41,255 nt of DNA, from assembly GCA_903910005.1 (NCBI GenBank), contig CAIVXW010000040.1, positions 1-41,255 of the forward strand, read 5' to 3'. Each line of letters opens with the position of its first letter. Within the stretch, counting starts at the first letter, position 1. This document shows positions 18,853 to 33,760 of this stretch, one piece after another. The position numbers and the translations under genes were made by a program. The notes below the pieces were generated by a model that saw nothing but the letters and a program-made list of their open reading frames with translations, had not been told where the DNA came from and made no database searches. Source of the stretch: an uncultured Methylococcaceae bacterium (GTDB lineage Bacteria; Pseudomonadota; Gammaproteobacteria; Methylococcales; Methylococcaceae).

Positions 18853-21800
18853 ATGAGTCGGAAAACCCGTAAAACCCGCCGTCAATCCCGTCTGCAATCC
18901 GGAATACCCGCCCAAACCGGGACGGTGTCTGACCGGCTCAACAAGGCACTCGATCTACACCGACAAGGCAATCTGGATGCGGCCTGTGCCCTGTACCATT
19001 CAATCCTGCAACAGGAACCGGAACATTTTGAGGCCTTGCAGTTACTGGGGGTATTGCGAATACGCCAGCAACGTTACACCGAAGCACTCGAATACCTGGA
19101 TCATGCCCTGTGCATTCGGGCGGATGTGATTGCGGTACACAATAACCGGGGCATCGCCTTGCACCGCCTCGGACGTCCGCAGGAATCCCTGGCCAGTTAC
19201 CAGCGGGTGTTGCAGGCGAATCCGGATTACGCTGAAGCCTGGTACAACCAGGGCATTGTCCAGCAGGAAACTGGCCAGTACCCGGAGGCTCTGGCCAGTT
19301 ACGAGCGGGCACTGGCCCTCAAGCCCGATTATTTCGAGGCACATGGCAACCGGGGCAATACCCTCAAGAGCCTGCACCGGCTGGAAGAAGCCCTGGGCAG
19401 TTATCAACGGGCACTGGCCATCCGCCCGGATTACGCGACGGCACTCTACAATTTAAGCGAAACCCTGGGTGACCTGGGACGCTTTGACGAATCGGTTGAA
19501 AACTACCACGCTGCCGTTCAACTGGCCCCGCATCCCGGTCACTACAGTAACTACCTGTTCATGCTGGCCTGTTATGCCGAACGGCAGACACCCGCCGCAT
19601 TGCTTGAGGCGGCCCGGAGTTGGGAGGGCGTTGCCCTGACCGCTGCCGAGCGTGCGGCGGCCCGACTGCGCCGTTTCAGTCCACCGCCGCGACAGGGGCG
19701 TCCACTCAGGGTTGGTATTGTTTCTGCCGAACTGGGGCAACACGCCGTCGCCTACTTCCTCATGTCCTGGCTGGGGCACCTGAATCCGGAACGAATCAGC
19801 CTGTACCTTTACCCCGTCCTCATGCGCAGCGAGGCCGCATCGCAGGTATTTCAATCCCTGGGTGCCCGCTGGCATCCACTGGATCGTCTCGATGATGCAT
19901 CTGCGGCTGAACAAATAAGAAGCGACGGCATCGACATCCTCATGGATGTGAGCGGTCACACCGCACACAACCGGTTGGGCCTGTTCGCCCACAGGGCTGC
20001 CCCGGTTCAGTGTCACTACATCGGCTTTTTTGCTACCACCGGCCTGACTGAAATGGATTACTTTCTGGCCGATGAGGTATTGGTGCCGTCTGCACTGGCG
20101 GATCAGTTCGTCGAAACGGTATGGCGACTACCTCGCCCCTGGCTGGCCTATGCACCGCTGGAAAATGCTCCGGAACCGGGCTGGCAAGCCCCGGATGATG
20201 GCACGGTGTGTCTGGGCAGTTTCAATAACCTGATAAAAGTACGGGAGGATTGCCTGGACTTATGGGCCCGGGTGATGCGAGCCCTGCCGGAAGCCTGGTT
20301 GCTGCTGAAGGATGGCAAGGCCACCGATGCCACCACCCGGCAGCGTATTTGCGACGGTCTTTCGCGGCGGGGCGTGGATGACCGCCGGGTGGCTTTCGCC
20401 GCACGAACCGCCTCCTGGCAGGAACATATGGCCCTGTACGATCAGGTGGACATTGCCCTGGATACCCTGCCGCTCAACAGTGGCACCACTGCCTTTGATG
20501 CCCTGTGGATGGGCGTTCCCCTGATAACCCTGGCGGGAAATACCCTGGCGGGACGGATGGGGGCCGCGATTGTCGCCGGTATGGGTCAGTCGGACTGGAT
20601 TGCCCGGGATTCAGATGACTACGTGGCCAAAGTGGTTGCCCTGGCGCGGGATTTATCGCTGCGAAAGAGGTTGAGACCGGGCCAGCGTGAACGGATGCGT
20701 GCAAGCCCCCTGTGTGACGGCGTGGGTCTGGCCCGAGTGCTGGAGGATGCGTTTGAAACCTGGTTTGACCGGTATGTCGGCTCGACATCCTCCCGTTTAC
20801 CGGTTGAGCATCGCCCGGCGGTCAGTGGCGGTACACCCGACGAAATCCTGCAACAGGCTCTGGATCTGCACCGACGCGGTCAGCTTGCCGAGGCCCAGGC
20901 CTGCTACGACACCCTGCTTGCACAGGATCCCCGGCATTTTGATGCCCTGCAGTTGGCAGGGGCTCTGGCCGCCCAGCAGGAACGCTGGCAACAGGCTCTG
21001 GAGTACGTGGATCACGCCCTGCTGATTCGTCAGGATCAGGCCGAGGTACATTACAACCGGGGCATCATTCTGCAAAACCTGCAACGGCCCGAAGCTGCCC
21101 TCGACAGCTATCGTCAGGCCTTGCGACTGGATCACGGCCATCTCGAAGCCCGCAACAACCTGGGGCTGATGCTGCAACGCCTGAATCGTCTTGATGAAGC
21201 TCTGGTTGCCTACGAAACCGTGCTGAGGATCAAACCCGATTATGCCGAGGTACATTGCAACAAGGGCAATGTACTGAAGGACATGCAGCGACTGGATGAA
21301 GCCCTGTCCTGCTACGAACAGGCGATTCGGTTCAGGCCGGATTACGCCCTGGCTCACTACAACATGGGTAACCTGTTCGCCGCCAGGGAGCGGGCGGATC
21401 AGGCCCTGATTCATTATGAATACGCGCTGCAACTGGGTTTTTGCCGTGCCGAGGTTTATTTCAACCGGGGTAATGCCCTCAAAAAGATGGGCTTGCTGCA
21501 GGAAGCCCTTGCCAGTTACGGGCAGGCGTTACGGCTTGATCCGGATTATGCGGAGGCCCATTACAACAGTGGCAATCTGCTGCGGGAAATCAGTCAGCCG
21601 GATGAAGGACTGGCCCACTACCGGCAGGCCATCAGCACCCGGCCCGATTTTGCCGATGTTTATGTCAATCGTGGCAACGCCTGCAAGGATATGGGACGTC
21701 TGGCCGAGGCGGAAGCCAGTTACCGTCAGGCAGTGTCCCTGTGCCCGCAGCACCCGGGGTATCGCAGCAATCTGCTGTTCCTGCTGGGCTATTGTCCGGA

Positions 21801-23016
21801 ACGGCAATCGGTGCAAGACTATCTGCAGGAGGCTCGAGCCTGGGAGCAAAGCGTGCTGACCGATGCCGAGCGGCAGGCAGTCGCTACACAGCGGTTTGAT
21901 CGCCCCGCCCGTATCGGGCGTCCACTGCGGGTCGGGGTGCTGTCGGCTGAATTGGGTCAACATGCCGTCGCCTATTTTCTCAACACCTGGATGGCTCACC
22001 TGAATCGTGACCGGGTTCAGTTGTTTCTTTATCCCGCCCGACAGATTGACGACCAACATGCCCAAAGCTTCAGGGCCATGGCGGATGCCGTGTGCCCGGT
22101 GGATGATCTGGATGACGCCGCCGCAGTAGCCCGTATCCGCTCGGATGCCCTGGATATCCTGATGGATACCAGCGGCCATACCGGCAGCAACCGGCTGGGT
22201 ATCATTGCCCGCCGGGCCGCCCCCATCCAGTGCCACTACATCGGCTATTTTGCCAGCACTGGCCTCAGCGAAATGGACTACTTTCTGGCCGATGAGGTAC
22301 TAATTCCGTCCGCGCTGGACGACCGGTTCGTGGAGCAGGTCTGGCGATTACCCCGCCCCTGGCTGGCCTATGGGCCGCTGGAACAGGCACCGCAAATTGA
22401 CTGGAAACCGGCTGCCGATGGCCGCATCTGTCTGGGCAGTTTCAATAATCTGGTCAAGGTACGGGAAAATTGCCTGGCGTTGTGGGCCCGGGTGATGCAG
22501 GCTCTGCCGGAAGCCTGGTTGCTGTTGAAGGACGGACGGGCCAGCGATGCCAGTACCCGGCGGCGCGTCACCGAGACACTGCAGCAGTGGGGGGTAACAC
22601 CGGATCGGGTGGTTTTTGCCGCACGCACGGCCGCCTGGCAGGAACACATGATGCTTTACAATCAGGTGGACATTGCCCTGGATACCCTGCCACTCAACAG
22701 TGGCACCACCGCCTTTGATGCCCTGTGGATGGGGGTTCCCCTGATAACCCTGGCAGGAGACCACATGGCCGGACGCATGGGGGCTGCCATCGTCACCGGT
22801 ATGGGACAACCCGACTGGGTTGCCACCACTGCCGACGACTACGTGGCCCGGGTAGTCGCCCTGGCGCGGGATATACCGACCCGAACCGCCCTGAGGGCCA
22901 ACCAGCGCGAACGGATGCGGGTCAGTCCGCTCTGCGATGGAGCCTACCTGGCCCGCACACTGGAAGACACGTTCGAGACCTGGTTTGATCGATGGAGCCT
23001 GTCCGGTACCGCCTGA
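18853..23016 (+). CDS. Tandem double-module TPR + GT41 (SPINDLY/O-GlcNAc-transferase-like) glycosyltransferase, 1387 aa
   Basis: TPR repeats (e.g. AEAWYNQGIVQQETGQYPEALASYERALALKPDY) are followed by a GT41-type catalytic region. Its motifs are RVGIVSAELGQHAVAYF, DILMDVSGHTAHNRL, CLGSFNNLIKV and DIALDTLPLNSGTTAFDALWMGVPLITLAG. The whole TPR+GT arrangement then repeats (RVGVLSAELGQHAVAYF ... DIALDTLPLNSGTTAFDALWMGVPLITLAG). AGGGGG RBS sits 8 nt upstream. Confidence 0.85.
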   Translation: MSRKTRKTRRQSRLQSGIPAQTGTVSDRLNKALDLHRQGNLDAACALYHSILQQEPEHFEALQLLGVLRIRQQRYTEALEYLDHALCIRADVIAVHNNRGIALHRLGRPQESLASYQRVLQANPDYAEAWYNQGIVQQETGQYPEALASYERALALKPDYFEAHGNRGNTLKSLHRLEEALGSYQRALAIRPDYATALYNLSETLGDLGRFDESVENYHAAVQLAPHPGHYSNYLFMLACYAERQTPAALLEAARSWEGVALTAAERAAARLRRFSPPPRQGRPLRVGIVSAELGQHAVAYFLMSWLGHLNPERISLYLYPVLMRSEAASQVFQSLGARWHPLDRLDDASAAEQIRSDGIDILMDVSGHTAHNRLGLFAHRAAPVQCHYIGFFATTGLTEMDYFLADEVLVPSALADQFVETVWRLPRPWLAYAPLENAPEPGWQAPDDGTVCLGSFNNLIKVREDCLDLWARVMRALPEAWLLLKDGKATDATTRQRICDGLSRRGVDDRRVAFAARTASWQEHMALYDQVDIALDTLPLNSGTTAFDALWMGVPLITLAGNTLAGRMGAAIVAGMGQSDWIARDSDDYVAKVVALARDLSLRKRLRPGQRERMRASPLCDGVGLARVLEDAFETWFDRYVGSTSSRLPVEHRPAVSGGTPDEILQQALDLHRRGQLAEAQACYDTLLAQDPRHFDALQLAGALAAQQERWQQALEYVDHALLIRQDQAEVHYNRGIILQNLQRPEAALDSYRQALRLDHGHLEARNNLGLMLQRLNRLDEALVAYETVLRIKPDYAEVHCNKGNVLKDMQRLDEALSCYEQAIRFRPDYALAHYNMGNLFAARERADQALIHYEYALQLGFCRAEVYFNRGNALKKMGLLQEALASYGQALRLDPDYAEAHYNSGNLLREISQPDEGLAHYRQAISTRPDFADVYVNRGNACKDMGRLAEAEASYRQAVSLCPQHPGYRSNLLFLLGYCPERQSVQDYLQEARAWEQSVLTDAERQAVATQRFDRPARIGRPLRVGVLSAELGQHAVAYFLNTWMAHLNRDRVQLFLYPARQIDDQHAQSFRAMADAVCPVDDLDDAAAVARIRSDALDILMDTSGHTGSNRLGIIARRAAPIQCHYIGYFASTGLSEMDYFLADEVLIPSALDDRFVEQVWRLPRPWLAYGPLEQAPQIDWKPAADGRICLGSFNNLVKVRENCLALWARVMQALPEAWLLLKDGRASDASTRRRVTETLQQWGVTPDRVVFAARTAAWQEHMMLYNQVDIALDTLPLNSGTTAFDALWMGVPLITLAGDHMAGRMGAAIVTGMGQPDWVATTADDYVARVVALARDIPTRTALRANQRERMRVSPLCDGAYLARTLEDTFETWFDRWSLSGTA
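19531..20775 (+). repeat. Internal duplication, copy 1: GT41-like catalytic module (aa 227-641)
   Basis: It aligns without net indel to 21751..22995 at a constant offset of 2220 nt. 20441..20534 versus 22661..22754 shows 3 mismatches in 94 nt. Confidence 0.85.
21751..22995 (+). repeat. Internal duplication, copy 2: GT41-like catalytic module (aa 967-1381)
   Basis: See copy 1. Both copies are 1245 nt, start at HPG(H/Y) and end at ETWFDR(Y/W). Confidence 0.85.
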
Positions 23017-23086
23017 GTCAATTCACCGATGCCGCAATGGTTGCGTCTGCAGCAATTTTTAACATAACCCAAGATAGCAGCAACGA

Positions 23087-24061
23087 ATGTCAATGAACGA
23101 TACTGCATATCTACAGGCACGAACCCTGTTTCAGGCCGGGCATTACCCGGCGGCAACCCTGATTTGTCAGCAGTATCCTGCTGACTTCAATCATTTGTAT
23201 TTGCTGGGGCTGATTCATGCCGAAACCTGCCAATACGACCAGGCCCTTGCCTGTCTGGAAGCCGCCCGGGTGCTTGATTCAAACCACCTCGGTCTGAAGG
23301 CGGACAGGGAGCGCGTCCTGAATGCGGTCAACCGGCAAAAACTGATGCTGGCTCTGGGGCTGCATCAGCACCATCGAGCGGTAGCTGCTGCATCGGTCTA
23401 TGATGAAATCCTGCAAACCGACCCGCAGCATTTTGATGCCCTGCAACTGCGGGGGGCTCTGGCCCTGCAGCGGGGCGACTATCGACAGGCTCTGAACGAT
23501 CTGAACCGGGCTGTCTCCATCCGTACCGATTATGCCGACGCCCACAGCAACCGGGGGATTGCCCTGCAGGAACTGGGACGTTTTGAAGAAGCCCTGGCAA
23601 GCTACGACCGTGCCCTGAGCCTGACCGCCGCCAATCCCCGGATTCACAACAACCGCGGTAACACCCTGAAGGAACTCAACCGTCTCGACGAGGCACTGGT
23701 GAGTTACGGTCATGCCCTGGCACTTGACCCGAATTATGCCGATGCCTGGAGCAACCAGGGCAGTACCCTGAACGCCCTGCAGCGCAGCGATGAGGCACTG
23801 CTCTGTTATGACCGGGCCCTGAGTCTTGATCCAACCCTGGCAGAAGCCTGGTTTAACCGGGGCAACATCCTCAGGGAGCGAAATCAACTGGAAGAGGCTC
23901 TGGCCTGTTATGACCGGGCTTTGACTCTCAAGCCGACATTTGCCCGGGTTTACAACAATCGGGGCATCGTTTTACAGGATTTGGGCTATCTGGGTGAAGC
24001 CCTGGCCAGTTATGAACGGGCTCTTGAACTGGATATGGCGGCTTCGGAGAAGTCGGCATGA
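23087..24061 (+). CDS. Stand-alone TPR-repeat protein (no catalytic domain)
   Basis: There are about 7 TPR units, and the segment DPQHFDALQLRGALALQRGDYRQALNDLNRAVSIRTDYADAHSNRGIALQELGRFEEALASYDRAL is closely related to both TPR arrays of the upstream GT. The stop overlaps the next start (ATGA at 24058-24061). Confidence 0.85.
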   Translation: MSMNDTAYLQARTLFQAGHYPAATLICQQYPADFNHLYLLGLIHAETCQYDQALACLEAARVLDSNHLGLKADRERVLNAVNRQKLMLALGLHQHHRAVAAASVYDEILQTDPQHFDALQLRGALALQRGDYRQALNDLNRAVSIRTDYADAHSNRGIALQELGRFEEALASYDRALSLTAANPRIHNNRGNTLKELNRLDEALVSYGHALALDPNYADAWSNQGSTLNALQRSDEALLCYDRALSLDPTLAEAWFNRGNILRERNQLEEALACYDRALTLKPTFARVYNNRGIVLQDLGYLGEALASYERALELDMAASEKSA

Positions 24062-25155
24062 TTCACACCGGCATACACCCCACCGCCGTCATTGATAACC
24101 AGGGCATTTGTGAAATGCCCGATACCACCATCATGGAAGCCGGGGCCATCATTTCGATCGGCTCACGCGGACGAATTCAGCTTGGTAACCGCAACATCCT
24201 CTACCCGCAAGTCAGCATTCGTATCGACCAGGGCTGGATGCTGACCGGCGATGAGGTTTCATTCGGCTCCGGCTGTCAGATTTACGAACCCCGGGCCGGT
24301 CTGGAGATTGGCCATCATTGCCTGATTGCCGGCAATGTCAGCATCTGTGGCGTCAAGCACGGGCGCATGGATCCGACCATCCCCATGCGGCAGCAGCCTG
24401 CGGAAAATCTGCCGATTCACATTGGCGATAATGTCTGGATCGGGATGGGAGTCATCATTCAGGCCGGTGTCCGTATTGGTTCAGGGGCGGTGATCGGGGC
24501 GGGTTCGGTGGTGACCCGGGATATACCGGAATGGGCCATTGCCTGGGGGACGCCCTGCCGGGTGCAGCGCATGCGCGGCAATGGCCACTTCATGGCGCAT
24601 CTGGAAGACGGCCCCCTGCGCCTGCATCTGGGGTGCGGTCCCCGTTTCATTCCGGGTTTTTTGCACGTGGATGCCCAGCCTCATCCCCATGTCGATCTGG
24701 TGGCGGATGTCGCCCGGCTGGAGATGATTCCCGACGCCAGTGTTGACCTGATCTATGCCTCTCATGTACTGGAACATTTTGGACGCTGGGAATTTCGCGG
24801 CGTCCTGACCGAATGGCGGCGTATTCTCAAACCCGGCGGCGTGCTGCGACTGGCCGTACCGGATTTTGCCGCCTGTGCCAAACTGTATTACGAGAACGGT
24901 CTGGCTGATGGTTTGAATGGCCTGATTGGCCTGGTTTGCGGCGGGCAGCGGGATGAGCATGATTTTCACCGCATGATTTTCGACGAACCCTTTCTCACCC
25001 ATGAGTTGGTGGGGCTTGGCTTTCGTCAGGTGCGCCGTTGGGACTGGCGAGACACCGAACACGCTGACATCGACGATTATTCCCAGTCATACCTGCCCCA
25101 TCTGGACAAGAACCGGGGAACCCTGATGAGCCTGAATCTGGAGGCACGCCGATGA
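24058..25155 (+). CDS. Fusion protein: N-terminal left-handed-beta-helix (hexapeptide) acyl/acetyltransferase + C-terminal class I SAM-dependent methyltransferase
   Basis: Hexapeptide-repeat region: IHIGDNVWIGMGVIIQAGVRIGSGAVIGAGSVVTRDIP. Methyltransferase region: LRLHLGCGPRFIPGFLHVD (motif I), DLIYASHVLEHF and ILKPGGVLRLAVPD. Confidence 0.75.
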   Translation: MIHTGIHPTAVIDNQGICEMPDTTIMEAGAIISIGSRGRIQLGNRNILYPQVSIRIDQGWMLTGDEVSFGSGCQIYEPRAGLEIGHHCLIAGNVSICGVKHGRMDPTIPMRQQPAENLPIHIGDNVWIGMGVIIQAGVRIGSGAVIGAGSVVTRDIPEWAIAWGTPCRVQRMRGNGHFMAHLEDGPLRLHLGCGPRFIPGFLHVDAQPHPHVDLVADVARLEMIPDASVDLIYASHVLEHFGRWEFRGVLTEWRRILKPGGVLRLAVPDFAACAKLYYENGLADGLNGLIGLVCGGQRDEHDFHRMIFDEPFLTHELVGLGFRQVRRWDWRDTEHADIDDYSQSYLPHLDKNRGTLMSLNLEARR

Positions 25156-25883
25156 GTGACGTCTGGGTTCCTTCGGATCGGCAGTATATGATTGACGATT
25201 TATGCCGCACCATCACCCGGGTCGCAGCCAACGAGGGCTGGTTTCAGCAATCCTGGCAGGGCGTGGATGTCTGGCAGTTGCCGGAAGATCTGGTACGGTT
25301 ACAGGGGGTGGTGCATACGATACGACCCCGCTGGATCATTGAAACCGGCACCAAATTCGGTGGCTCGGCGATTTTTTTTGCCTCACTGCTGGCGTTGAAT
25401 GGCGAGACGGCAGGCGGCGTTATCACGGTAGACCTTGACCTGAAACCGCAGGCTCTGGATTGTTTCAGGCATCATCCCCTGGGTACGCGGATTAAGGCCG
25501 CCCTGGCCGGTGATGCGGCAGCCCCGGATACCCTGGCACGTTGTGCCAGCCTGCTGGCCAGCGATCCCGGTTGCGTCATGGTGTTTCTGGATGACGACCA
25601 TAATGCCGATCATGTCGAGCGGGAATTACAGGCCTACGCCCCCCTGGTCACCCCTGGCAGTTATTTGATTGTGGCGGATACCAGTTTTGCCGAGCTGGCG
25701 GGTACGCCGGTCGGCCGGTCAACCCCCAAGTATCCGGATGTGGCACGCTCCAACCCAAAAGTCGCGCTGGAACGGTTTCTGGTTTCCCACGGCCACCAGT
25801 TCGAGCGGGTGGTGCCGCCCTGTCCCCACGGCCCCGGCAACTTTAAGGATGGTTTTTTGAGAAGGCGAACCGATGTATCCTGA
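25152..25883 (+). CDS. CmcI-family (cephalosporin-hydroxylase / rhamnosyl O-methyltransferase-like) methyltransferase
   Basis: FQQSWQGVDVWQLPEDLVRLQGVVHTIRPRWIIETGTKFGGSAIFFA and VFLDDDHNADHV fit the CmcI family (PF04989). The ATG overlaps the upstream stop (ATGA). Confidence 0.72.
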   Translation: MSDVWVPSDRQYMIDDLCRTITRVAANEGWFQQSWQGVDVWQLPEDLVRLQGVVHTIRPRWIIETGTKFGGSAIFFASLLALNGETAGGVITVDLDLKPQALDCFRHHPLGTRIKAALAGDAAAPDTLARCASLLASDPGCVMVFLDDDHNADHVERELQAYAPLVTPGSYLIVADTSFAELAGTPVGRSTPKYPDVARSNPKVALERFLVSHGHQFERVVPPCPHGPGNFKDGFLRRRTDVS

Positions 25884-26631
25884 AATGACGCATAAAACAC
25901 TGCGGATGCCGGACGGTTGCCGTCTGGGTTATGGCATCCGTGCAAACGGAGCGGATACGACCCTGATGCTGATCCACGGGGCTTTGTGTGATGCTACCTC
26001 GCTGCAGCATATCGCGCTGGCCGATGATGGTCAGCTTGACGTGCTGTTGCCGGATTTGCGCGGTCACGGCCAATCGACGGACGGAACGACCGAATGGACG
26101 CTGGAATTACTGGCCCGGGACATGCTCGCCCTCGTTGAAGCTGAGCAGGTTGGACGCTTGATTGTTGCGGGTGAGTCTTTTGGTGCCCTGGTAGCGGCCC
26201 GGATGGCGACCCTGAGACCTGACAGGATCAGCCTGCTGATTTGCTCTGAACCCCCCTTGTCGCCTGCCCGCCTTGCCCCCGTACGTCAGGCCATACTCTC
26301 TGCCATGCCATTCAATGCGTCGGCCCGGGGGCTGGCAGCCATTATGGGATATGCGCCGAGTAGCGATGCACACCAAAACGAGACCACGTTCCATGCCGTA
26401 CTGACCGGAACCACCGTGCCGTTAATTTTGCTGCACGGAACCGGTGGCAGCGGCAGCTTCGCCACTGTCGTGGATCAGGCCGACAGGATTCGGCTCTCCG
26501 GAGTGCCGTCCATCACGCTGCTGAAGGTCGAAGCAGCCGATCATCTGGTGTTGCGTGCCGTGGGTAGCAGCCTGGTGAGGGCACTGCTGGCAGAGCAGCG
26601 GGCTTCGTCGCCCATTCCGGGAGTGCGCTAA
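25873..26631 (+). CDS. Alpha/beta-fold hydrolase (possible esterase/deacylase)
   Basis: LMLIHGALCD (oxyanion-region HG), the nucleophile elbow GESFGA, and a late ADH that may be the catalytic His region. It overlaps the upstream gene by 11 nt. Confidence 0.68.
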   Translation: MYPEMTHKTLRMPDGCRLGYGIRANGADTTLMLIHGALCDATSLQHIALADDGQLDVLLPDLRGHGQSTDGTTEWTLELLARDMLALVEAEQVGRLIVAGESFGALVAARMATLRPDRISLLICSEPPLSPARLAPVRQAILSAMPFNASARGLAAIMGYAPSSDAHQNETTFHAVLTGTTVPLILLHGTGGSGSFATVVDQADRIRLSGVPSITLLKVEAADHLVLRAVGSSLVRALLAEQRASSPIPGVR

Positions 26632-26655
26632 AGTTTGGCCGGACAATTCCGATAC
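26629..26655 (+). promoter_or_regulatory. Sigma-28 (FliA) class III promoter for the flagellin gene
   Basis: TAAAGTTT (26629-26636), then 11 nt, then TCCGATAC (26648-26655). The consensus is TAAAGTTT-N11-GCCGATAA, so the -35 matches 8/8 and the -10 matches 6/8 with the CCGATA core intact. The leader to ATG 26753 is about 90 nt, and AGGAG lies upstream of the ATG. Confidence 0.75.
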
Positions 26656-26752
26656 CTTGATCCGCATAGATTAAGCGGGTGAGCCGGAACAGGGTTCCCC
26701 CGATAATCCTGAATTCTTATACTCCCATCCCCAATTCAACAGGAGCACTACC

Positions 26753-28978
26753 ATGCCTTCCATAGTCAATACCAACATGCTGGCACTGACCACCCAGCGT
26801 CAGATGAACAAGGCCCAGGCCACTCAGCAAAATGCCATGACCCGTCTTTCCTCAGGGCTCCGTATCAACGGTGCCAAGGACGATGCAGCCGGCATGTCGA
26901 TCGCCAACCGCATGTCGTCACAGATTACCGGTCTCAATCAGGCTACCCGCAATGCCAACGATGGCATTTCGCTGACCCAAACGGCCGAAGGCGGACTGAG
27001 CGAGATCAATACCAACCTGCAGCGTATGCGCGAACTGGCCGTGCAGTCCGCCAACGCTTCCAATACCGCCTCTGACCGGGTCGCCCTGCAACAGGAAACC
27101 AAGCAGCTGCTGCAGGAAATTCAGCGGGTCGCGTCCACCACCGATTTCAACGGCATCAAGTTGCTGGACGGCAGTTTCCAGAACAAGGCGTTCCAGATTG
27201 GAGCCAATGCCGGTCAAACCACCAATATCAGTGTTGCCAGTGCGGCCATCAAGGATCTGGGTTCTTCCGCCAATTCGGCCATAACCAGTCGGGGTATGTC
27301 CACCAATAAATCGAATGCTGCCCTGAATGGGGCTGCCGGTACCAATGCGCCCGCCATGGCTTTGGGTGACGTCATAGTGAATGGTGTGAGCGTAGGGGCT
27401 TCCACGGCCGACAATGACACTACCTCTTTCTCACTGGGTGCGGCCAGTGCCATTGCCAAGGCAGCCGCTTTCAACAAGGTTTCCGCGCAAACCGGTGTCA
27501 CCGCCACGGTCAATGCCAATGAAGTGCAGGGGAAGGAGATGACTGCGGGTGGTTCCGGTAGTGGCAAAATTGTGATAAACGGGGTGGCGACTGATGACAT
27601 TACCCTCCAGGATGTTACCAGCGATTCGACCGGCATTGCCAACCGCACCAACATCATGAATGCCATCAATTCGATGACAGGACGAACCGGGGTAACGGCG
27701 GTCGACAGTGGCGATAACAAAACCGGTATTAAACTGGTAGCCGCCGACGGTCGCAACATTTCACTGGGAGTCACCGATGCAAGTCTCACTACGGCCAATA
27801 CTGGCTTGAATCTCAGCGGAACCGGAGTACTTGCCAGCACTAACGCGACTGATCTCGCAAATGCCAGTGATGCCGCTTACGGGGTCTTTACCGCATCAGT
27901 AACCCTGTCTTCCACCAAGGAAATGAAAATTGAGCAGGGAACCGGTGATGTCGGCAATGCCGGGCTGACCACAGGCACCTACCAGGCCCAGAAGGCCATG
28001 GTTATGACCAAGCAGATTGGTAATGGAGACGGCACGCTGAATGCGACCGAGGGCTTTACCTACGGTGATTTCAAGATCAACGGCATTTTGATTGGAACCT
28101 CGCTTGCTGCGGATGACAAATACACCCTGCCAGGTACCGCCAACCCTGAGGTCAGTGCCATTGCCAAGGCGGCAGCGGTCAACAAGTTGTCCAGCCTGAC
28201 CGGCGTCTCGGCAACGGCCAATACCACCCTGGTCAAGGGGGCGACCATGGACAACAACTCGCAAAGTGGCCAGATCGTCATCAACGGCATGGAAACATCC
28301 GTGATTACCACCACTTCCAACACCACTGCTGCCAACCAGGCCGAAACCCGGCAGCGGGTGGTCGCTGCCATCAATGCCATCAGCGGTAAAACCGGGGTCA
28401 AGGCCATTGACACCAATGATGCTGCTTCGGGGATTCGGCTTGAGGCTGCCGATGGTCGCAACATCACGGTTGATCTTGGTGCAGGAACCACGAATCCTGG
28501 TGCTGGTACCGGAGCCAGTTTTGGTCTTCGCGAAGGCACTTACTCCGGTTCCATTTCGTTGTCCTCGACCAAGGCTTTCAGTATAGAACGCGGAACCACC
28601 AACAGGGATACCAATGCAACCCTCGGTCTGGCAGTTGGTACCTACGGGGCCGGTCGAACCGGTCAATCGCTGGAGTCGATCGATATTTCCAGCCAGGAAG
28701 GAGCCGTGGCCGCCATTGAGGCCATAGACAACGCGATCAACGCAGTGGATGAAAGCCGGGTGAATATGGGATCCTACCAAAACCGCTTTACCTCGACGGT
28801 TTCGGCCCTGCAGTCCACGTCAGCCAATCTGACCGCAGCCCGCAGCCGGATTCAGGATGCCGACTTTGCGGCAGAATCGGCTGAAATGAGCAAGGCCGGT
28901 ATTCTGCAGCAGGCAGGTACCGCCATGCTGGCACAGGCCAATGCGTCCAGTCAGGGGGTATTGTCACTGCTCAGATAA
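26753..28978 (+). CDS. fliC: Flagellin (741 aa, enlarged variable region with four Flagellin_IN motifs)
   Basis: Conserved N-terminal D0/D1: VNTNMLALTTQRQMNK...LSSGLRINGAKDDAAGMSIANRM...ATRNANDGISLTQTAEGGL. Conserved C-terminus: GSYQNRFTSTVSALQSTSANLTAARSRIQDADFAAESAEMSKAGILQQAGTAMLAQANASSQGVLSLLR. Confidence 0.96.
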   Translation: MPSIVNTNMLALTTQRQMNKAQATQQNAMTRLSSGLRINGAKDDAAGMSIANRMSSQITGLNQATRNANDGISLTQTAEGGLSEINTNLQRMRELAVQSANASNTASDRVALQQETKQLLQEIQRVASTTDFNGIKLLDGSFQNKAFQIGANAGQTTNISVASAAIKDLGSSANSAITSRGMSTNKSNAALNGAAGTNAPAMALGDVIVNGVSVGASTADNDTTSFSLGAASAIAKAAAFNKVSAQTGVTATVNANEVQGKEMTAGGSGSGKIVINGVATDDITLQDVTSDSTGIANRTNIMNAINSMTGRTGVTAVDSGDNKTGIKLVAADGRNISLGVTDASLTTANTGLNLSGTGVLASTNATDLANASDAAYGVFTASVTLSSTKEMKIEQGTGDVGNAGLTTGTYQAQKAMVMTKQIGNGDGTLNATEGFTYGDFKINGILIGTSLAADDKYTLPGTANPEVSAIAKAAAVNKLSSLTGVSATANTTLVKGATMDNNSQSGQIVINGMETSVITTTSNTTAANQAETRQRVVAAINAISGKTGVKAIDTNDAASGIRLEAADGRNITVDLGAGTTNPGAGTGASFGLREGTYSGSISLSSTKAFSIERGTTNRDTNATLGLAVGTYGAGRTGQSLESIDISSQEGAVAAIEAIDNAINAVDESRVNMGSYQNRFTSTVSALQSTSANLTAARSRIQDADFAAESAEMSKAGILQQAGTAMLAQANASSQGVLSLLR
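27362..27988 (+). repeat. Flagellin surface module A (aa 204-412): two xINGxxx 'Flagellin hook IN' motifs
   Basis: LGDVIVNGVSVG...SAIAKAAAFNKVSAQTGVTAT...KIVINGVATD...NIMNAINSMTGRTGVTAVD...GIKLVAADGRNISLG...VTLSSTKEMKIEQGT...GLTTGTYQA. Confidence 0.8.
28061..28651 (+). repeat. Flagellin surface module B (aa 437-633): a diverged tandem copy of module A
   Basis: YGDFKINGILIG...SAIAKAAAVNKLSSLTGVSAT...QIVINGMETS...RVVAAINAISGKTGVKAID...GIRLEAADGRNITVD...ISLSSTKAFSIERGT...GLAVGTYGA. Confidence 0.8.
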
Positions 28979-28995
28979 GTAGCTTCCCGTGGCCT

Positions 28996-29096
28996 GAAAC
29001 AAGGAACGACACAAACAGAAAAAACGAAAGAAGAAAAGGATGAAAAAAATGGAAAAGATGAAAAGGATGAAAAGGATCAGAAGAATGGAGTGAAGC
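28996..29096 (+). repeat. Purine/A-rich low-GC tract with six tandem degenerate 9-bp units (29039-29092) and six A(A/T)GGA motifs
   Basis: The 9-bp units are gatgaaaaa aatggaaaa gatgaaaag gatgaaaag gatcagaag aatggagtg. GGA motifs are at 29003, 29038, 29051, 29065, 29074 and 29087. The tract contains very few pyrimidines, in sharp contrast to the flanking GC-rich DNA. Confidence 0.85.
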
Positions 29097-29404
29097 CACC
29101 TGGACTGGCGGTCGGTTCTTATGGTTCTGGTCACATCCGCGAATCGCCTGAATCGGTTTCGGTTGATGTTTACGCCCGGCAGGCGGGCGTTGGGGTGGTC
29201 AGGGCCATGGATGACCTAATCAATTCGGTGGATAAGAATCTGGAAAACAGGGGTTCAAACCGTCTTGCTTCGGCTGTCAATCTGAGTGCTTTTGCGGCAG
29301 AATCGGCTGAAATGGGCAAGGCCGATATTCTGCAGCGGGCAGATGCCGCCATGCTGGCGCAGGCCAATGCGTCCACCCGGAGGGTATTGTCACTGCTCAG
29401 ATAA
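29090..29404 (+). pseudogene. Decayed 3' remnant of a second flagellin gene
   Basis: GLAVGSYGSG...AMDDLINSVDKNLENRGSNR...FAAESAEMGKADILQRADAAMLAQANASTRRVLSLLR aligns to the fliC C-terminus. The segment around YQNRFTSTVSALQSTSANLTAARSRIQDAD is missing or decayed. The last 114 nt (29291-29404) match 28865-28978 at 104/114 positions, and similarity continues about 20 nt past the stop. There is no N-terminal domain. Confidence 0.7.
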
Positions 29405-29581
29405 ATAGATCCCTTGTACTGAGACAGGTCTGGCCCTGGACAGGGATGATCCAGGGCGCACGGGTGTCTTGTCGTCCAGTTCAGCCTGGGTCGGGATGTC
29501 TGGTTTTTTTATGTTTGCATGGTTTCAGGGTCTGATACCGTGCATGTACCTTAGGCATACGGATAATTTTTGGAGTCGGCC

Positions 29582-29983
29582 ATGAAAATAAGTGATTTGG
29601 TGTCACCTGCCTTTGTGCAAAAAAGCGGGATTGCACGTGAATTGTCCGAATCCGCCCGTTCGTTGTCCCCAACGACCGTTGCCGATACGGTTGTGGTGGC
29701 TTCGTGGCAAATCCTGCCTGTCAAGGAACCGGATGGTATCCAGGCGACATCAGAAAAAAGGGAACAGCAACTGGATGAGGCCATTGCAAAGGCAAACCGG
29801 TTTTTGCAGGATGATAACCGTGCCCTGCAGTTCGTCAAGGACAAGGATTCAGATCGAATCGTCATTGTAATCAAGGACACGAAGACAAATGAGGTAATTC
29901 AACAGATTCCCTCGGAAGCCATGCTGAGATTATCCAGACAACTTGAGCAGTTGCAGGGTATTCTGTTTGAAGAAAAAGTGTAA
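29582..29983 (+). CDS. flaG: Flagellar protein FlaG
   Basis: The C-terminal region LQFVKDKDSDRIVIVIKDTKTNEVIQQIPSEAMLRL is typical of the FlaG family (PF03646), and the position between fliC and fliD fits. I prefer ATG 29582, which has GGAG 6 nt upstream, over the TTG at 29570. Confidence 0.85.
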   Translation: MKISDLVSPAFVQKSGIARELSESARSLSPTTVADTVVVASWQILPVKEPDGIQATSEKREQQLDEAIAKANRFLQDDNRALQFVKDKDSDRIVIVIKDTKTNEVIQQIPSEAMLRLSRQLEQLQGILFEEKV

Positions 29984-30021
29984 GCGAGATAACGGAATAA
30001 TGTATTTTTGAAGGTATCGTC

Positions 30022-32055
30022 ATGGTTTCAATTACCTCAAGCGGGCTGGGTTCCGGCATGGATATCAACGGCCTGGTCACCAAACTGGTGGAAGCTGAAA
30101 AAGCCCCGGCCGTCACCCGGCTTGATAAAGCCGAGGCGAAAATACAGGCCAGGATTTCCGCCTACGGTTCATTCAAAAGTGCCCTGTCTGCGGTCAGGGA
30201 CAGTTTGGCGGTGTTGGGTAAGGCTCAGACCTTTCAGAAAGTCAGCGCAACTTCCAGTGACAACACGGTACTGACGGCTACTGCAGGTATCAATGCCGAT
30301 GCCGGCAAGTACCGAATGGAGGTGCAACGACTGGCCCAAAACCATGCCTTGTCCAGTAAAAGCCATGATTCTGCCAGCGCGGTGGTGGGTTCAGGAACCC
30401 TGACCATCAAATTCGGCACAACCCAGTACGACGCGGGTACTGATACTTATGCGGGGTTCACCCAGAATCCTGACAAGGGTACCCTGACCCTCACCATTGA
30501 CGATTCAAACAACACCCTGACCGGGATTCGTGATGCCATCAACAAATCGGCAGCGGGTGTCACGGCGTCCATCGTTTATAATGGCAGCGGCCATCAACTG
30601 GTGTTGAACAGCACTGATAGCGGTGCCAAAAACAGCCTGCAAATAGCGGTAACAGACACTTCTGATGGCAACAATACCGATAACCTGGGCTTGTCGGCAC
30701 TGGCGTTCAACCAGACGGCGACCCACCTGACCCAGAATCAGGTAGCTCAGGATGCCCAGTTGTCGATTAACGGACTGGCTGTGAACAGCAGCACCAATAC
30801 CATCACGGACGCCCTGAAGGGCGTTACGCTTAACTTGCAGCAGGCCCAGGTGGGTAAATTCGTTTCACTGGATGTCAGTTATGCGGATACCGACGTCAAA
30901 ACTGCCGTCAGTACTTTTGTGGACAAATTCAATGAACTGGCCCGGAACGTCAGCACCGCAGCCACCTATGATCCCCAAACCCGAACCGCCGGCATTTTGC
31001 TGGGAGAGTCTACCGTCATCAATACCATGTCGCGCCTCAGGGCTGAACTGGGTAAAACTGTGACGGGGTTGACCGGGACGACCCGCAGTCTGGCCGACAT
31101 CGGAATCACCACTCAGAAAGACGGTACCCTGAGTTTCGACAGTGCCAAACTGAGTAAGGCGTATGCCACAGATCGTACCGCTGTTGCCGCCTTGTTTGCC
31201 GTAACCGGGCGACCGAGCGACAGTTCAAACCTGTATGTCAGCAGCACACGGGACACGCTGGCAGGCCAGTATGGCGTAGAGGTCACCCAGTCAGCCAGCC
31301 AGGGATTGTTGAGTGGTTCAAGCGTAGTCGGCGGTGTTTTTCCCCTGGCGGTGAGTGAACCCAACAACAGCCTGAAAATCAAGGTGAACGGTGTGCAGTC
31401 CGGCAGCATCACCTTGACGCCGACAAGTTATGCGTCGGGGAGCGAACTGGCTGCTGAATTACAGACCCGCATCAATGGCGACAGCACACTCAGATTGAGT
31501 GGAACTGCCGTCAAGGTAAGTTTCAGTAACGACCAGTTCCAGATTCAGTCCAATTCATATGGCGCATCGTCCCAGGTCGAAATCACCGGGATCAATGCCC
31601 AGTTGTCTGCTTCCCTGGGGTTGGCAACCGGTGTCGGTGTTGCCGGTCATAATGTGACAGGGACGATTAACGGCGAAGTGGCCGAGGGGGACGGTCAGGT
31701 TCTGACCGCCATTAGCGGTTCTGCCAAGGGGTTGAGCCTGCTGATGGAGGGGTCGCGAACCGGTACACGCGGAACCGTCGACTTTACCCGTGGCATCATG
31801 GAACAAATAAACAGCGTCTTGTCCGCTGCACTGGACAACAACGGTATGCTGGCGGTTCGTACCAAGGGTTTAAGCACATCCATCACCGACATTACCCGCC
31901 AGCGTACCGATTTATCAACCCGCATGGAAACCTACCAGCGGCAGTTGTACATCCGATTCAACGCAATGGATTCCATGATGGGCAAGTTACAGGCGACCAG
32001 TACCTACCTGACCCAGCAAATCACTGCCCTTAATGCCGCCAACAAGCAAAATTAG
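30022..32055 (+). CDS. fliD: Flagellar filament capping protein FliD
   Basis: N-terminus ITSSGLGSGMDINGLVTKLVEAEKAP...RISAYGSFKSAL and C-terminus RFNAMDSMMGKLQATSTYLTQQI. Confidence 0.93.
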   Translation: MVSITSSGLGSGMDINGLVTKLVEAEKAPAVTRLDKAEAKIQARISAYGSFKSALSAVRDSLAVLGKAQTFQKVSATSSDNTVLTATAGINADAGKYRMEVQRLAQNHALSSKSHDSASAVVGSGTLTIKFGTTQYDAGTDTYAGFTQNPDKGTLTLTIDDSNNTLTGIRDAINKSAAGVTASIVYNGSGHQLVLNSTDSGAKNSLQIAVTDTSDGNNTDNLGLSALAFNQTATHLTQNQVAQDAQLSINGLAVNSSTNTITDALKGVTLNLQQAQVGKFVSLDVSYADTDVKTAVSTFVDKFNELARNVSTAATYDPQTRTAGILLGESTVINTMSRLRAELGKTVTGLTGTTRSLADIGITTQKDGTLSFDSAKLSKAYATDRTAVAALFAVTGRPSDSSNLYVSSTRDTLAGQYGVEVTQSASQGLLSGSSVVGGVFPLAVSEPNNSLKIKVNGVQSGSITLTPTSYASGSELAAELQTRINGDSTLRLSGTAVKVSFSNDQFQIQSNSYGASSQVEITGINAQLSASLGLATGVGVAGHNVTGTINGEVAEGDGQVLTAISGSAKGLSLLMEGSRTGTRGTVDFTRGIMEQINSVLSAALDNNGMLAVRTKGLSTSITDITRQRTDLSTRMETYQRQLYIRFNAMDSMMGKLQATSTYLTQQITALNAANKQN

Positions 32056-32075
32056 TCTTACGAGAGTCCTGAACC

Positions 32076-32477
32076 ATGAGATCCGCCAGCCATGCCCTGA
32101 ACGAATACAGACAAACCTACGTCGAAGCCGGCGGTGTGTATGCCGATCCGCATAGCCTCATTTCCATGTTGTTTGGCGGGTTGCAGGAGCGCATTGCCAT
32201 AGCCAGGGGGGCTTTGCAGCGGAAAGATCACGCCGTCAAGGGCAAGGCCGTCAGCCAGTCCATCGAGATACTGGCGTACCTGCAATCCTGTCTGAATGTA
32301 GAGCAGGGCGGAGAGATTGCCAAAAATCTGGACGGCCTTTATGCCTACATGAGCCAGCAACTGTTCATGGCGGGTGCCAACAATGATGACGCCCTGTTTG
32401 AGGAAGTGAAGTATTTGCTGGCCGAGATTCAAAGCGGTTGGGACGGCATACGCAGCCAGGTCGTCGGCAAAAGTTGA
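32076..32477 (+). CDS. fliS: Flagellin-specific export chaperone FliS
   Basis: YRQTYVEAGGVYADPHSLISMLFGGL, GGEIAKNLDGLYAYMSQQL and EIQSGWDGI. Confidence 0.92.
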   Translation: MRSASHALNEYRQTYVEAGGVYADPHSLISMLFGGLQERIAIARGALQRKDHAVKGKAVSQSIEILAYLQSCLNVEQGGEIAKNLDGLYAYMSQQLFMAGANNDDALFEEVKYLLAEIQSGWDGIRSQVVGKS

Positions 32478-32827
32478 GCAGCCCGGATCCCGATCAGCCT
32501 GATCTGCTTCAGCAGATTGACCGCGTCCTGCAACTGACCGGCCATCTGGCAGCGGTTGTCGCGGCGGGTCAGTGGGATGAGGCAGAGCGTACGGAAATCG
32601 AACGTTTAGGCTTGCTGGATGAACTGTCAGCAGCACTGGCGGCGGTTTCAGACCGGGCGACGCTTGAACCGGTGCTGGAACGAATGCGGGTCGCCCTGGC
32701 ACTGAATGAAACCCTGGTCGAATCCCTTGCCCGCGAGCGCGGTCAGGTAGCCCGTGAACTCCGGCAACTCAACAATGCCGCCCAGGCCGAACGCGAATAC
32801 CGCAGTTATTTTGACGACTCAGCCTGA
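32474..32827 (+). CDS. FliT-like small helical flagellar protein (assignment tentative)
   Basis: The position directly after fliS and the helical sequence with GQWDEAERTEIERLGLLDEL resemble FliT-type chaperones. A TTG at 32474 overlaps the fliS stop (TTGA). The track ORF begins further upstream at 32438, inside fliS. Confidence 0.45.
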   Translation: MSSPDPDQPDLLQQIDRVLQLTGHLAAVVAAGQWDEAERTEIERLGLLDELSAALAAVSDRATLEPVLERMRVALALNETLVESLARERGQVARELRQLNNAAQAEREYRSYFDDSA

Positions 32828-32844
32828 CATGCCGCCCGGGTGTT

Positions 32845-33669
32845 TCATCCGCGCTGAAGAATCCACTCCAGTACCAGCTTGCTGCCCAGATAGGCCAGCA
32901 TCAGCGAAATAAAACCTCCCAGTGTCCAGCGAATGGCCACCTGTCCGCGCCAGCCGTAACGCACCCTCCCTGCCAGTACCACCGCAAAAAACACCCAGGC
33001 CAGAATGGACAATACCGTCTTGTGGGCCAGGTGCTGGGCGAACATGTTTTCCAGAAATATAAATCCGCTGCCGAGCGATACCGTCAACAGCGCGAAACCA
33101 CCCCCAATCAGTTGGAACAGCAGGTTTTCCATGGTTTGCAGCGGCGGTAGCGAGCGGATCAGGGGCGATGCCATCTGCCGGGTTCTGAGTCCGCGATCCT
33201 GCAAGGCCAGCAACAAGGCCTGCATTGCCGCGATGTTAAGCAGACTAAAGGCCAGCATGGATGACAAAATGTGTACCGTCATGGGCCACGAATGATTGTG
33301 GACACCATGGCTTGCCGCCGGGATGCCCAGTTTAAGGGCCAGAATTACCGCCGCAAGCGGATAAATAACGATGCCAAGTTTGTCGACCGGCTTGAAGGCC
33401 GCCGCCAGCAACAGCATCAGCACGGCCACCCCTGAAACCAGCGACAGCGCGTTCAGCAGGCTGAAGTCCAGACCGGTCTCCGGTTGGATCGACCCCAGCC
33501 AGAGTACGCCATGTGGAATAAGGGCCAGCCAGCCCAAAGCCAGTATGCCTGCCCGAATACCTGGCGGGTGTTTGCTGCTTCGATAGTCAAACCGCAGGGA
33601 ACGGATCGTGCCGATGGTAGCAGCCATATAGGCAATGATGGCGAACAGGCTCAGTGTGGTTGCGTTCAT
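32845..33669 (-). CDS. Cytochrome c assembly (CcsA-like) family inner membrane protein, YpjD-like
   Basis: It has about eight TM segments and is divergent from ffh, exactly as E. coli ypjD is. A Trp-rich segment (ILAWVFF...RYGWRGQVAIRW) is present. Confidence 0.72.
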   Translation of the reverse strand: MNATTLSLFAIIAYMAATIGTIRSLRFDYRSSKHPPGIRAGILALGWLALIPHGVLWLGSIQPETGLDFSLLNALSLVSGVAVLMLLLAAAFKPVDKLGIVIYPLAAVILALKLGIPAASHGVHNHSWPMTVHILSSMLAFSLLNIAAMQALLLALQDRGLRTRQMASPLIRSLPPLQTMENLLFQLIGGGFALLTVSLGSGFIFLENMFAQHLAHKTVLSILAWVFFAVVLAGRVRYGWRGQVAIRWTLGGFISLMLAYLGSKLVLEWILQRG

Positions 33670-33760
33670 GAAATATGCTCTCCTCCCCTTAGTCTGGCAT
33701 AATGTGGCATCAAGATGAAGTTCGGACGGAATTGTTACAGGTTGACCCAGGTTTTTTCAC

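Follow-up and report, generated by a model that had tools for sequence, protein, structure and literature searches.

We analysed a 41,255-nucleotide (nt) stretch of DNA from an uncultured Methylococcaceae bacterium (GenBank assembly GCA_903910005.1, contig CAIVXW010000040.1; hereafter the window), in which four consecutive genes at positions 23087-26631 encode a protein composed solely of tetratricopeptide repeats (TPR-only), a fusion of an acetyltransferase (AT) and a methyltransferase (MT), a CmcI-family MT and an alpha/beta-hydrolase. We consider, with a probability of roughly 60%, that these genes make up the downstream portion of an operon for flagellin glycosylation, led by a gene for a glycosyltransferase of family 41 (GT41), situated immediately upstream of a separately promoted flagellin gene and including enzymes that decorate the sugar. 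According to this reading, the GT41 enzyme, a tandem of two TPR-GT41 units, would put a sugar, most likely a 6-deoxyhexose of the fucose or rhamnose type, on Ser/Thr residues of flagellin in the cytoplasm, and the AT-MT fusion and the CmcI-family MT would then add O-acetyl and O-methyl groups to the sugar hydroxyls. The TPR-only protein would most likely bind flagellin, a property known from the isolated TPR domains of other flagellin glycosyltransferases, and would assist the glycosylation step as an accessory factor, for example in holding or presentation, or as a regulator. The tailoring enzymes probably do not require it as an adaptor. For the hydrolase, trimming of O-acyl groups as an esterase would be most plausible. 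The analysis shows the gene structure, the domain families, synteny, selection, paralogy and the distribution of the module, and from these we infer the flagellin target, the kind of sugar, the timing of tailoring relative to transfer and the roles of TPR-only and the hydrolase.

Organisation of the operon

All four open reading frames (ORFs) lie on the forward strand. ORF1 (23087-24061, 324 amino acids (aa)) matches only TPR families in Pfam, ORF2 (24058-25155, 365 aa) matches Hexapep and Methyltransf_11, ORF3 (25152-25883, 243 aa) matches RMNT_CmcI, and ORF4 (25873-26631, 252 aa) matches Abhydrolase_1/6. ORF1 and ORF2 share 4 nt (24058-24061, reading ggcATGAtt), as do ORF2 and ORF3 (25152-25155, ccgATGAgt), and ORF3 and ORF4 share 11 nt (25873-25883, ccgATGtatccTGA). 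An earlier note, made from the letters of this DNA, had described the block with these overlaps, and its coordinates and junction letters were all correct; its domain calls, namely a TPR protein without a catalytic domain, a fusion of a hexapeptide-repeat AT and an MT, a CmcI protein and a hydrolase, were each confirmed by Pfam. The 4/4/11-nt overlaps are also kept in three relatives (L003, L086 and L087). No junction is commoner in bacterial operons than the 4-nt ATGA overlap, and the junctions thus show an operon and co-expression, and nothing exceptional.

The GT41 gene lies directly upstream (18853-23016, forward strand, 1387 aa), and a 70-nt gap separates its stop codon from the TPR-only gene. 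We found no convincing terminator between the two genes; the terminator scan performed no better than on shuffled sequences. In L087 the GT41 stop codon overlaps the start of the TPR-only gene. Thus, the transcription unit probably comprises five genes, of which the GT41 gene is the first. The scan for sigma-70 promoters was no better than that of shuffled sequence, and the search for sigma-54 promoters gave no site near the operon.

A sigma-28 (FliA)-type promoter motif (26629-26654, forward strand, TAAAGTTT-N12-CCGATA) overlaps the stop codon of the hydrolase gene and precedes the flagellin ATG by ~100 nt. It is an exact match and the sole one in the window at up to two mismatches, 0.08 being expected by chance. 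Because this motif occurs only in front of the flagellin gene (26753-28978, forward strand, 741 aa; Pfam Flagellin_N and Flagellin_C), the latter appears to own a late promoter, and transcription of the giant flagellin, which is the presumed target of the enzymes, is probably independent of the tailoring operon. The flagellin gene (fliC) is followed by flaG, fliD, fliS and fliT, so the genes for the double GT41, the AT-MT fusion, the CmcI-family MT and the hydrolase stand directly upstream of fliC-flaG-fliD-fliS, as in a flagellin glycosylation island. Housekeeping genes make up the outer flanks, with dus, purH and psd at one end and a ccsA-like gene and ffh at the other, which delimits a small flagellin island. 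Judged from its genes, the locus fits a GT41-type flagellin glycosylation island.

Conservation of the block and distribution of the tailoring enzymes

Nine other lineages (L003, L006, L086, L087, L088, L089, L090, L169 and L008) were found to keep the block, or a recoverable part of it, with its gene order unchanged, the Thiocystis locus L008 being counted as partial. Flagellin lies 3' of the block wherever the contig reaches that far (L003, L086, L087, L088 and L089), as it does in the window, and in the Thiocystis locus the AT/MT gene stands beside a giant flagellin gene. This conservation supports the earlier proposal that the genes are transcribed together, serve to tailor a glycan and are linked to flagellin.

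The tailoring enzymes are distributed far more widely than the block. The AT-MT fusion occurs in ~19 protein clusters, including those from Methylococcaceae, Thiorhodovibrio, Thiocystis and Rhabdochromatium, and stand-alone proteins of ~200 aa corresponding to the MT half (50-74% identity) number more than 2000. Among 82 non-redundant loci, the MT has as neighbours a complete TPR-GT41 in 53, an AT in 29, a CmcI-family MT in 26 and a second MT (~310 aa) in 25. The order of the genes varies across loci (e.g., CmcI-AT/MT in Gallionellaceae), indicating a functional module rather than a fixed operon. Its hosts belong to Gamma-, Beta- and Alphaproteobacteria, Geobacteraceae, Verrucomicrobia, Nitrospirota and Cyanobium, and its presence in the non-flagellate Cyanobium implies that the enzymes are directed at the sugar, not at flagellin.

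Proteins of ~690 aa that combine SEC-C, a TPR array and Sulfotransfer_3 also adjoin the MT/GT41 module (L013:17025-19076, L039:3416-5488, L040:4304-6319, L045:2551-4617 and L050:10456-12594), and a fusion of TPR, sulfotransferase and MT is present in Thiorhodovibrio (L001:1-1924). These proteins suggest sulfation of the same protein-linked glycans.

The tailoring enzymes

ORF2 consists of a left-handed beta-helix sugar O-acetyltransferase (aa 1 to ~165), a linker (aa 165-176) and a class I S-adenosylmethionine (SAM)-dependent MT (aa ~185-365). The Pfam matches fall at aa 120-154 for Hexapep (E = 1e-11) and aa 212-263 for Methyltransf_11 (E = 1e-9), and the AlphaFold2 model (predicted local distance difference test (pLDDT) score 81.5) shows two well-folded domains, the N-terminal one rich in beta-structure, separated by the linker modelled at low confidence. 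The best matches of the AT half in the PDB are maltose and galactoside O-acetyltransferases (3srt, 1.6e-19; 1kqa, 4e-16), and its hexapeptide beta-helix is nearest to the sugar O-acetyltransferases of the Maa/LacA/WcaF/WbbJ group. O-acetyltransferases of the WcaF/WbbJ type, like the rhamnosyl O-MTs and CmcI, decorate hydroxyls of fucose- or rhamnose-type sugars, i.e., 6-deoxyhexoses. The best NCBIfam matches of the AT half are WcaF, LacA and WbbJ, each scoring far under its equivalog cut-off (76.8 against 192 for the WcaF subfamily, 67.7 against 347 for LacA and 66.6 against 243 for WbbJ), so we assign it to the family and not to an acceptor specificity.

The MT half has the Rossmann-like fold, the glycine-rich SAM motif and the acidic residue after strand 2 that characterise class I MTs. 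All 50 sequences compared share residues H190, G192, C193 and G194 of the SAM motif ('LHLGCG') as well as D205. In other genomes, AT and MT are encoded separately, in the order MT-AT in L016 and L042 and divergently oriented in L032 and L058; the fusion therefore links two activities on one substrate. The CmcI-family MT matches RMNT_CmcI (PF04989) with an E value of 2e-41 and 142.3 bits, the cut-off being 23.2, over 182 of 206 model positions, and scores 76.7 bits against NF045824, the equivalog for mycobacterial rhamnosyl O-MTs, whose cut-off is 400. Its gene is absent in L089 and L090 and frameshifted in L088. Sequence searches of the PDB with the CmcI protein and with the MT half returned no matches.

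The hydrolase has the G-x-S-x-G elbow, Asp and His of a serine esterase; the elbow (G100-E-S102-F-G104) is invariant, as are D201 and D204. The family is narrow and restricted to the clade, with 8 clusters at 55-97% identity and nothing beyond them at >35%. When metagenomes were scanned with a profile of the hydrolase, 78 of the 80 loci returned carried unrelated alpha/beta-hydrolases, L089 and L090 being the only ones with orthologues. We read the protein as a Ser-Asp-His enzyme specific to this lineage, with removal of O-acyl groups by esterase action as its most plausible role.

The GT41 enzyme and the sugar

Pfam recognises Glyco_transf_41 in four stretches of the GT41 protein (E = 2.6e-86), along with two TPR arrays. 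Both catalytic halves are nearest to Arabidopsis SPINDLY (SPY; 221 and 207 bits, as against 139 for human OGT), a protein O-fucosyltransferase. In an alignment to 7y4i, the SPY catalytic and GDP-binding residues H495, K665, H728 and T748 are all kept in GT41 unit 2. Y744 and S496 of SPY are tied to the fucose and acceptor site, Y744 being a proposed fucose contact (PMC9715652).

The MT adjoins gmd (above the NCBIfam cut-off) and a GDP-L-fucose-synthase-like (fcl-like) gene (443-492 bits, cut-off 500) in 14 loci, and L013 and L071 bring together GT41, CmcI, AT/MT, ManC, Gmd and Fcl. In 11 loci (L060, L062, L068, L074, L077 and L079-L084), the MT lies directly beside gmd and the fcl-like gene without GT41. 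The stand-alone MT homologues there are 55-65% identical and also adjoin ManC and, in some cases, genes for ABC transporters, an arrangement resembling that of polysaccharide-type loci. The affinity to SPY, the adjacency of gmd and fcl-like genes, and the relationship of the enzymes to WcaF/WbbJ and to rhamnosyl MTs together constitute circumstantial evidence for a 6-deoxyhexose of the fucose or rhamnose type. Our literature search for bacterial GT41 O-fucosylation, or for methyl-fucose on flagellin, found nothing relevant.

Serial duplication and fusion of the TPR-GT41 glycosyltransferase is common. The Thiocystis locus contains a stop-to-stop ORF of 2585 aa with three tandem TPR-GT41 units (L008:1303-9057), a Geobacteraceae metagenome-assembled genome (MAG) contains one of 3087 aa with four or more (L014:706-9966), and Rhabdochromatium carries four separate TPR-GT41 genes in tandem (L007).

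The TPR-only protein

The product of ORF1 matches TPR_1 (E = 1.7e-55) and no other Pfam domain, and comprises ~9 TPR hairpins. In the alignment of its orthologues, these start with MN..., so that the true start codon is probably the second ATG at 23093 (322 aa). Orthologues in the same position were found in L003, L006, L086, L087, L088, L089 (partial), L090 and L169, i.e., eight in total (318-327 aa or partial), seven of which were used in the alignment and the tree. A homologue search with the protein was swamped by generic consensus-like TPR proteins and, among the matches listed, was uninformative on orthologues. One of the syntenic orthologues, P0123, is labelled Woesearchaeota. Its contig (L169; GCA_016866615.1, VGLZ01000056.1), binned as 'Candidatus Woesearchaeota archaeon', shows the bacterial arrangement of double GT41, TPR-only and MT, and the label is probably a binning error in the MAG.

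Residues 74-316 align without gaps to the TPR arrays of the GT41 protein, with 46% identity to array 2 and 40% to array 1. Such values are not distinctive by themselves, as unrelated consensus-like TPR proteins reach 36-54% identity to TPR-only among the matches listed. Nevertheless, the strict motif DP.H[FY].ALQL.G was found only in the TPR-only orthologues and array 2 of the window's GT41, and in a motif-anchored tree the TPR-only proteins join the GT41 arrays of their own clade with 78% bootstrap support, leaving the arrays of other lineages (DALHL) outside. We conclude from the motif and the tree that TPR-only is an in-clade paralogue of the substrate-binding TPR domain of GT41. The shared repeat lineage that the earlier note had recognised is therefore upheld, on these grounds and not on raw identity. 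We also considered an origin from a 'third unit' like unit 3 of the Thiocystis enzyme, which is unsupported, the best Thiocystis match being unit 1 at 37%; based on the tree, in-clade duplication appears preferable.

The AlphaFold2 model of TPR-only is an 18-helix solenoid (pLDDT 96.7), whose top Foldseek matches are the TPR domain of OGT (6eou/1w3b, E = 4e-17) and also SPY. The asparagine in the ladder position is invariant in five consecutive repeats among orthologues that are only ~53% identical. This residue also belongs to the general TPR consensus; its invariance is consistent with, though not proof of, peptide binding. The dN/dS ratio of TPR-only is ~0.09-0.31, compared with 0.20 for GT41 and 0.21 for the hydrolase, and those of the AT-MT fusion and the CmcI-family MT are lower (0.06-0.10); all these figures are rough, as dS is saturated (1.3-2.8 for TPR-only). 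TPR-only is a real, selected, OGT-like TPR solenoid confined to this clade.

Alternative explanations

Several observations weigh against a GT41-led flagellin glycosylation operon as we propose it. That the flagellin is glycosylated at all is read here from the genes, and the window holds no genes for sugar-nucleotide synthesis. Among the loci containing GT41, gmd/fcl genes accompany only 3 of 53. In GT41 unit 2, Y744 of SPY is replaced by Leu and S496 by Ala (alignment to 7y4i); the active-site residues of SPY, which we examined as a guide to the donor sugar, are therefore ambiguous, and the comparison does not assign it. Foldseek with the AT-MT model retrieved generic class I MTs alone (E ~1e-5), which give no clue to the substrate. 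The His224 of the hydrolase is found in the window and in eight of the nine relatives, P0244 having Arg in its place. Finally, the near-identical strain L088 matches the window at 94-97% nucleotide identity over 23091-33779; homology breaks at 23091, the start of the TPR-only gene, and in L088 (1-3879) LpxB and a 338-aa ORF take the place of the GT41 gene. The link to GT41 is thus not obligatory in cis, and the four-gene block can exist as a unit apart from the GT41 gene, if the break, which could be either a real rearrangement or a chimeric short-read metagenomic contig, is genuine.

The alternative that fares best, which we nonetheless regard as doubtful, is that tailoring takes place on the nucleotide-sugar donor before transfer and so requires no targeting to protein, and that TPR-only, having no part in tailoring, acts with GT41 alone, perhaps as a holdase or a competitor. 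The 11 loci with the MT beside gmd and the fcl-like gene and without GT41 agree with such a scheme, as does the divergence of TPR-only, which tracks that of GT41 unit 2 rather than that of the enzymes. There is precedent for O-methylation of a sugar at the nucleotide stage in CalS11, which is reported to act on TDP-rhamnose (PMC4760980). On the other hand, the mycobacterial rhamnosyl O-MTs of the CmcI family are reported to act after transfer (PMC3594219), and the TPR-sulfotransferase fusions in sister loci imply tailoring on protein. In addition, as the window has no dedicated sugar-nucleotide pathway, altering a pool shared by the whole cell would probably be risky.

The earlier note had proposed that the free TPR protein is an adaptor in trans, a 'reader' that binds flagellin and recruits the TPR-less 'writers', namely the AT-MT fusion, the CmcI-family MT and the hydrolase. 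We consider this unlikely, despite (i) the ATGA coupling of the TPR-only and AT-MT genes in the window, L003, L086, L087 and L088, (ii) the narrow phyletic distribution that TPR-only shares with the hydrolase, and (iii) the precedent of GlfM, a free-standing adaptor that serves the flagellin glycosyltransferase Maf-2 (bioRxiv 10.1101/2023.12.03.569772). An accessory protein of this kind should co-occur with its enzymes across lineages, but most loci have no free TPR. We counted at least 20 loci in which AT/MT, accompanied or not by CmcI, lies beside a complete TPR-GT41 and no free TPR is present, and no other TPR match in the first 85 loci stands in an ORF shorter than 496 aa, each being fused to GT41 or to some further domain. 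A complete TPR-GT41 is placed directly upstream of AT/MT or MT in Thiorhodovibrio, L064, L023 and L078, and in Thiorhodovibrio the complete TPR-GT41 and AT/MT genes are themselves joined by ATGA coupling. The enzymes thus normally work without a free TPR.

The locus L087 provides a second argument. Its AT, MT and CmcI proteins are 97-99% identical to those of the window, but identity is only 55% for TPR-only, 57% for the hydrolase and 66% for GT41 unit 2, so that very different TPR-only alleles serve essentially identical enzymes. Nucleotide identity rises from ~60% to 97% at ~24000-24058 and falls back at ~25890, both being gene junctions; over window positions 23000-27300, the AT-MT and CmcI genes (~97%) thus lie between TPR-only and hydrolase alleles of only ~55-65% identity. 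At the C-terminal end of GT41 unit 1, L087 and the window converge once more, to 93%. A mosaic with breakpoints placed so precisely at junctions indicates that the parts were exchanged independently, which argues against a co-adapted complex. In L089, moreover, the coupling between the TPR-only and AT-MT genes is lost (32-nt gap). Recruitment of the tailoring enzymes by the free TPR is therefore not borne out.

What stands of the 'TPR reader plus writer' idea is its general form, because relatives fuse the same type of TPR array to a sulfotransferase (L013, L039, L040, L045 and L050) or to a sulfotransferase and an MT (L001). It is attractive to speculate that TPR-only is a detached reader presenting flagellin, or glycosylated flagellin, to the AT-MT fusion, the CmcI-family MT and especially the hydrolase in a split system for tailoring a glycan on protein, within a wider family of SPINDLY-like TPR-GT41 systems that build a methylated, acetylated or sulfated fucose-type sugar, albeit we hold this picture, too, to have only a small chance of being correct.

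It is still less probable that the block tailors a polysaccharide of lipopolysaccharide or capsule, or a glycoprotein other than flagellin, and that the adjacency of flagellin is incidental. The GT41-MT-AT-CmcI module of Cyanobium, which has no flagella, the module of Thiorhodovibrio, which has no flagellin within 10 kb, and the MT in gmd/fcl/ABC-transporter neighbourhoods would suit such a target, and a cyanobacterial GT41 glycosylates a pilin (PMC9306852). The earlier note had taken occurrence of the block beside non-flagellar loci as a sign of a polysaccharide target. Such occurrence is real for the enzymes, since MT, AT and CmcI are present in Cyanobium and the MT alone lies by gmd/fcl, but it does not extend to the whole block: where enough downstream flank is available, TPR-only, AT-MT and hydrolase genes are always found directly upstream of flagellin, followed by flaG, fliD, fliS and fliT as far as the contig reaches. 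In addition, GT41 enzymes are protein glycosyltransferases, and flagellin islands with GT41 are documented (PMC4875605).

Lastly, that TPR-only has no function and is what remains of a third TPR-GT41 unit after loss of its catalytic domain, as might be suggested by the full TPR-GT41 at the equivalent position in L001, L007, L023, L064 and L078, by the three fused units in Thiocystis and by a faster evolution than that of the AT-MT fusion and the CmcI-family MT, is very improbable and largely refuted, because the protein remains intact (318-327 aa) in nine lineages, the window included, despite saturated synonymous divergence, shows dN/dS values like those of GT41 and the hydrolase, and has invariant residue blocks and a confidently predicted fold.

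The flagellin gene and other features of the window

The central region of the flagellin gene (27439-28464) contains an internal tandem direct repeat with a spacing of ~705 nt (235 aa) and 72-76% nucleotide identity. This central domain is the fastest-evolving part of the flagellin, being 79-83% identical to that of L088, as against 99-100% at the termini. The flagellin has two copies of the variable domain, and the adjacent GT41 has two TPR-GT41 units.

The interval between fliC and flaG (28988-29529) measures ~540 nt, compared with ~84 nt in L088. At 29291-29413, it repeats the final 123 nt of the flagellin gene at 89% identity; the translation of this copy ends in ...AAESAEMGKADILQRADAAMLAQANASTRRVLSLLR and a stop codon, and a low-complexity stretch rich in Lys, Glu and Asp precedes it. 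The local GC content falls to ~0.50. The insert resembles the remains of a second flagellin gene arranged in tandem with the first.

Elsewhere in the window, a protein with DUF6513 and a pterin-binding domain is encoded at 11081-12574 (forward strand). Its presence and the Methylococcaceae affinities of the closest homologues (P0005/L006) point to a methanotroph or methylotroph of the Methylococcaceae type as the source of the window. A 214-aa ORF without a family match at 32058-32702 (reverse strand) is antisense to fliS (32076-32477) and fliT (~32474-32827) and is almost certainly a spurious shadow ORF.

Comparison with known systems

If our preferred explanation, a GT41-led flagellin glycosylation operon with sugar-decorating enzymes, is true, the locus represents one more flagellin glycosylation island, which helps annotation and is no surprise. 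The tailoring set that accompanies SPINDLY-like TPR-GT41 enzymes across phyla may matter more. It comprises the ~200-aa MT, the CmcI-type MT, the sugar O-acetyltransferase and the TPR-sulfotransferases, and is sometimes joined to genes for GDP-fucose synthesis. To our knowledge, no member of this set has been characterised, and it would give a tractable entry to bacterial cytoplasmic O-glycosylation with decorated 6-deoxyhexoses. TPR-only can be viewed as a natural experiment on whether a GT41 enzyme's substrate-binding TPR is able to function in trans.

Mycobacterial rhamnosyl O-MTs and CmcI (PF04989) match ORF3, and WcaF/WbbJ match the N-terminal half of ORF2, as family members and not as orthologues; their known examples act on glycolipids or polysaccharides, not on glycoproteins. 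As to OGT and SPINDLY, the GT41 domains of the window are closest to SPINDLY, and the TPR-only model is closest to the OGT/SPY superhelix and keeps the ladder asparagines. OGT and SPY differ from the present system in that they act alone on many nucleocytoplasmic proteins, with sugars that are not further methylated or acetylated, and Y744 of SPY is not kept in the window.

Among flagellin glycosyltransferases, residues 1-313 of Caulobacter FlmG, i.e., its TPR domain alone, suffice for flagellin binding (PMC7591256), and the isolated TPR domain of Shewanella Maf-1 likewise binds flagellin (bioRxiv 10.1101/2023.12.03.569772). In both, a TPR domain of ~300 aa sets the specificity of flagellin binding, and TPR-only is of the same size and fold class. 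However, the TPR domain of FlmG and Maf-1 is covalently joined to the transferase, the sugars are pseudaminic or legionaminic acid, and neither a free TPR nor tailoring enzymes are present. The nearest precedent for an adaptor is GlfM-Maf-2, in which a small accessory encoded in cis bridges an enzyme without a binding domain to flagellin (bioRxiv 10.1101/2023.12.03.569772). GlfM is, however, a four-helix bundle of 89 residues and not a TPR protein, and it serves the glycosyltransferase itself and not tailoring enzymes; we found no sequence relationship between GlfM and the TPR-only protein of the window.

The closest parallel to the whole locus is offered by the flagellin islands of Enterobacteriaceae, which combine GT41, MT domains and WbbJ-type O-acetyltransferases (De Maayer & Cowan 2016, PMC4875605) and of which none has been biochemically characterised. 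Like the window, these islands have a SPINDLY-type GT41 by fliC, SAM-dependent MT domains and O-acetyltransferases of the maltose/WbbJ family, which are presumed to decorate the flagellin glycan. The MT domain is usually fused to GT41 in Enterobacteriaceae, whereas it is fused to the AT in the window, and the window differs further in its tandem double TPR-GT41, TPR-only protein, CmcI-family MT and alpha/beta-hydrolase. Thus, what is new relative to the known islands is the AT as fusion partner of the MT, the tandem double GT41, a free TPR paralogue under selection and a clade-specific hydrolase.

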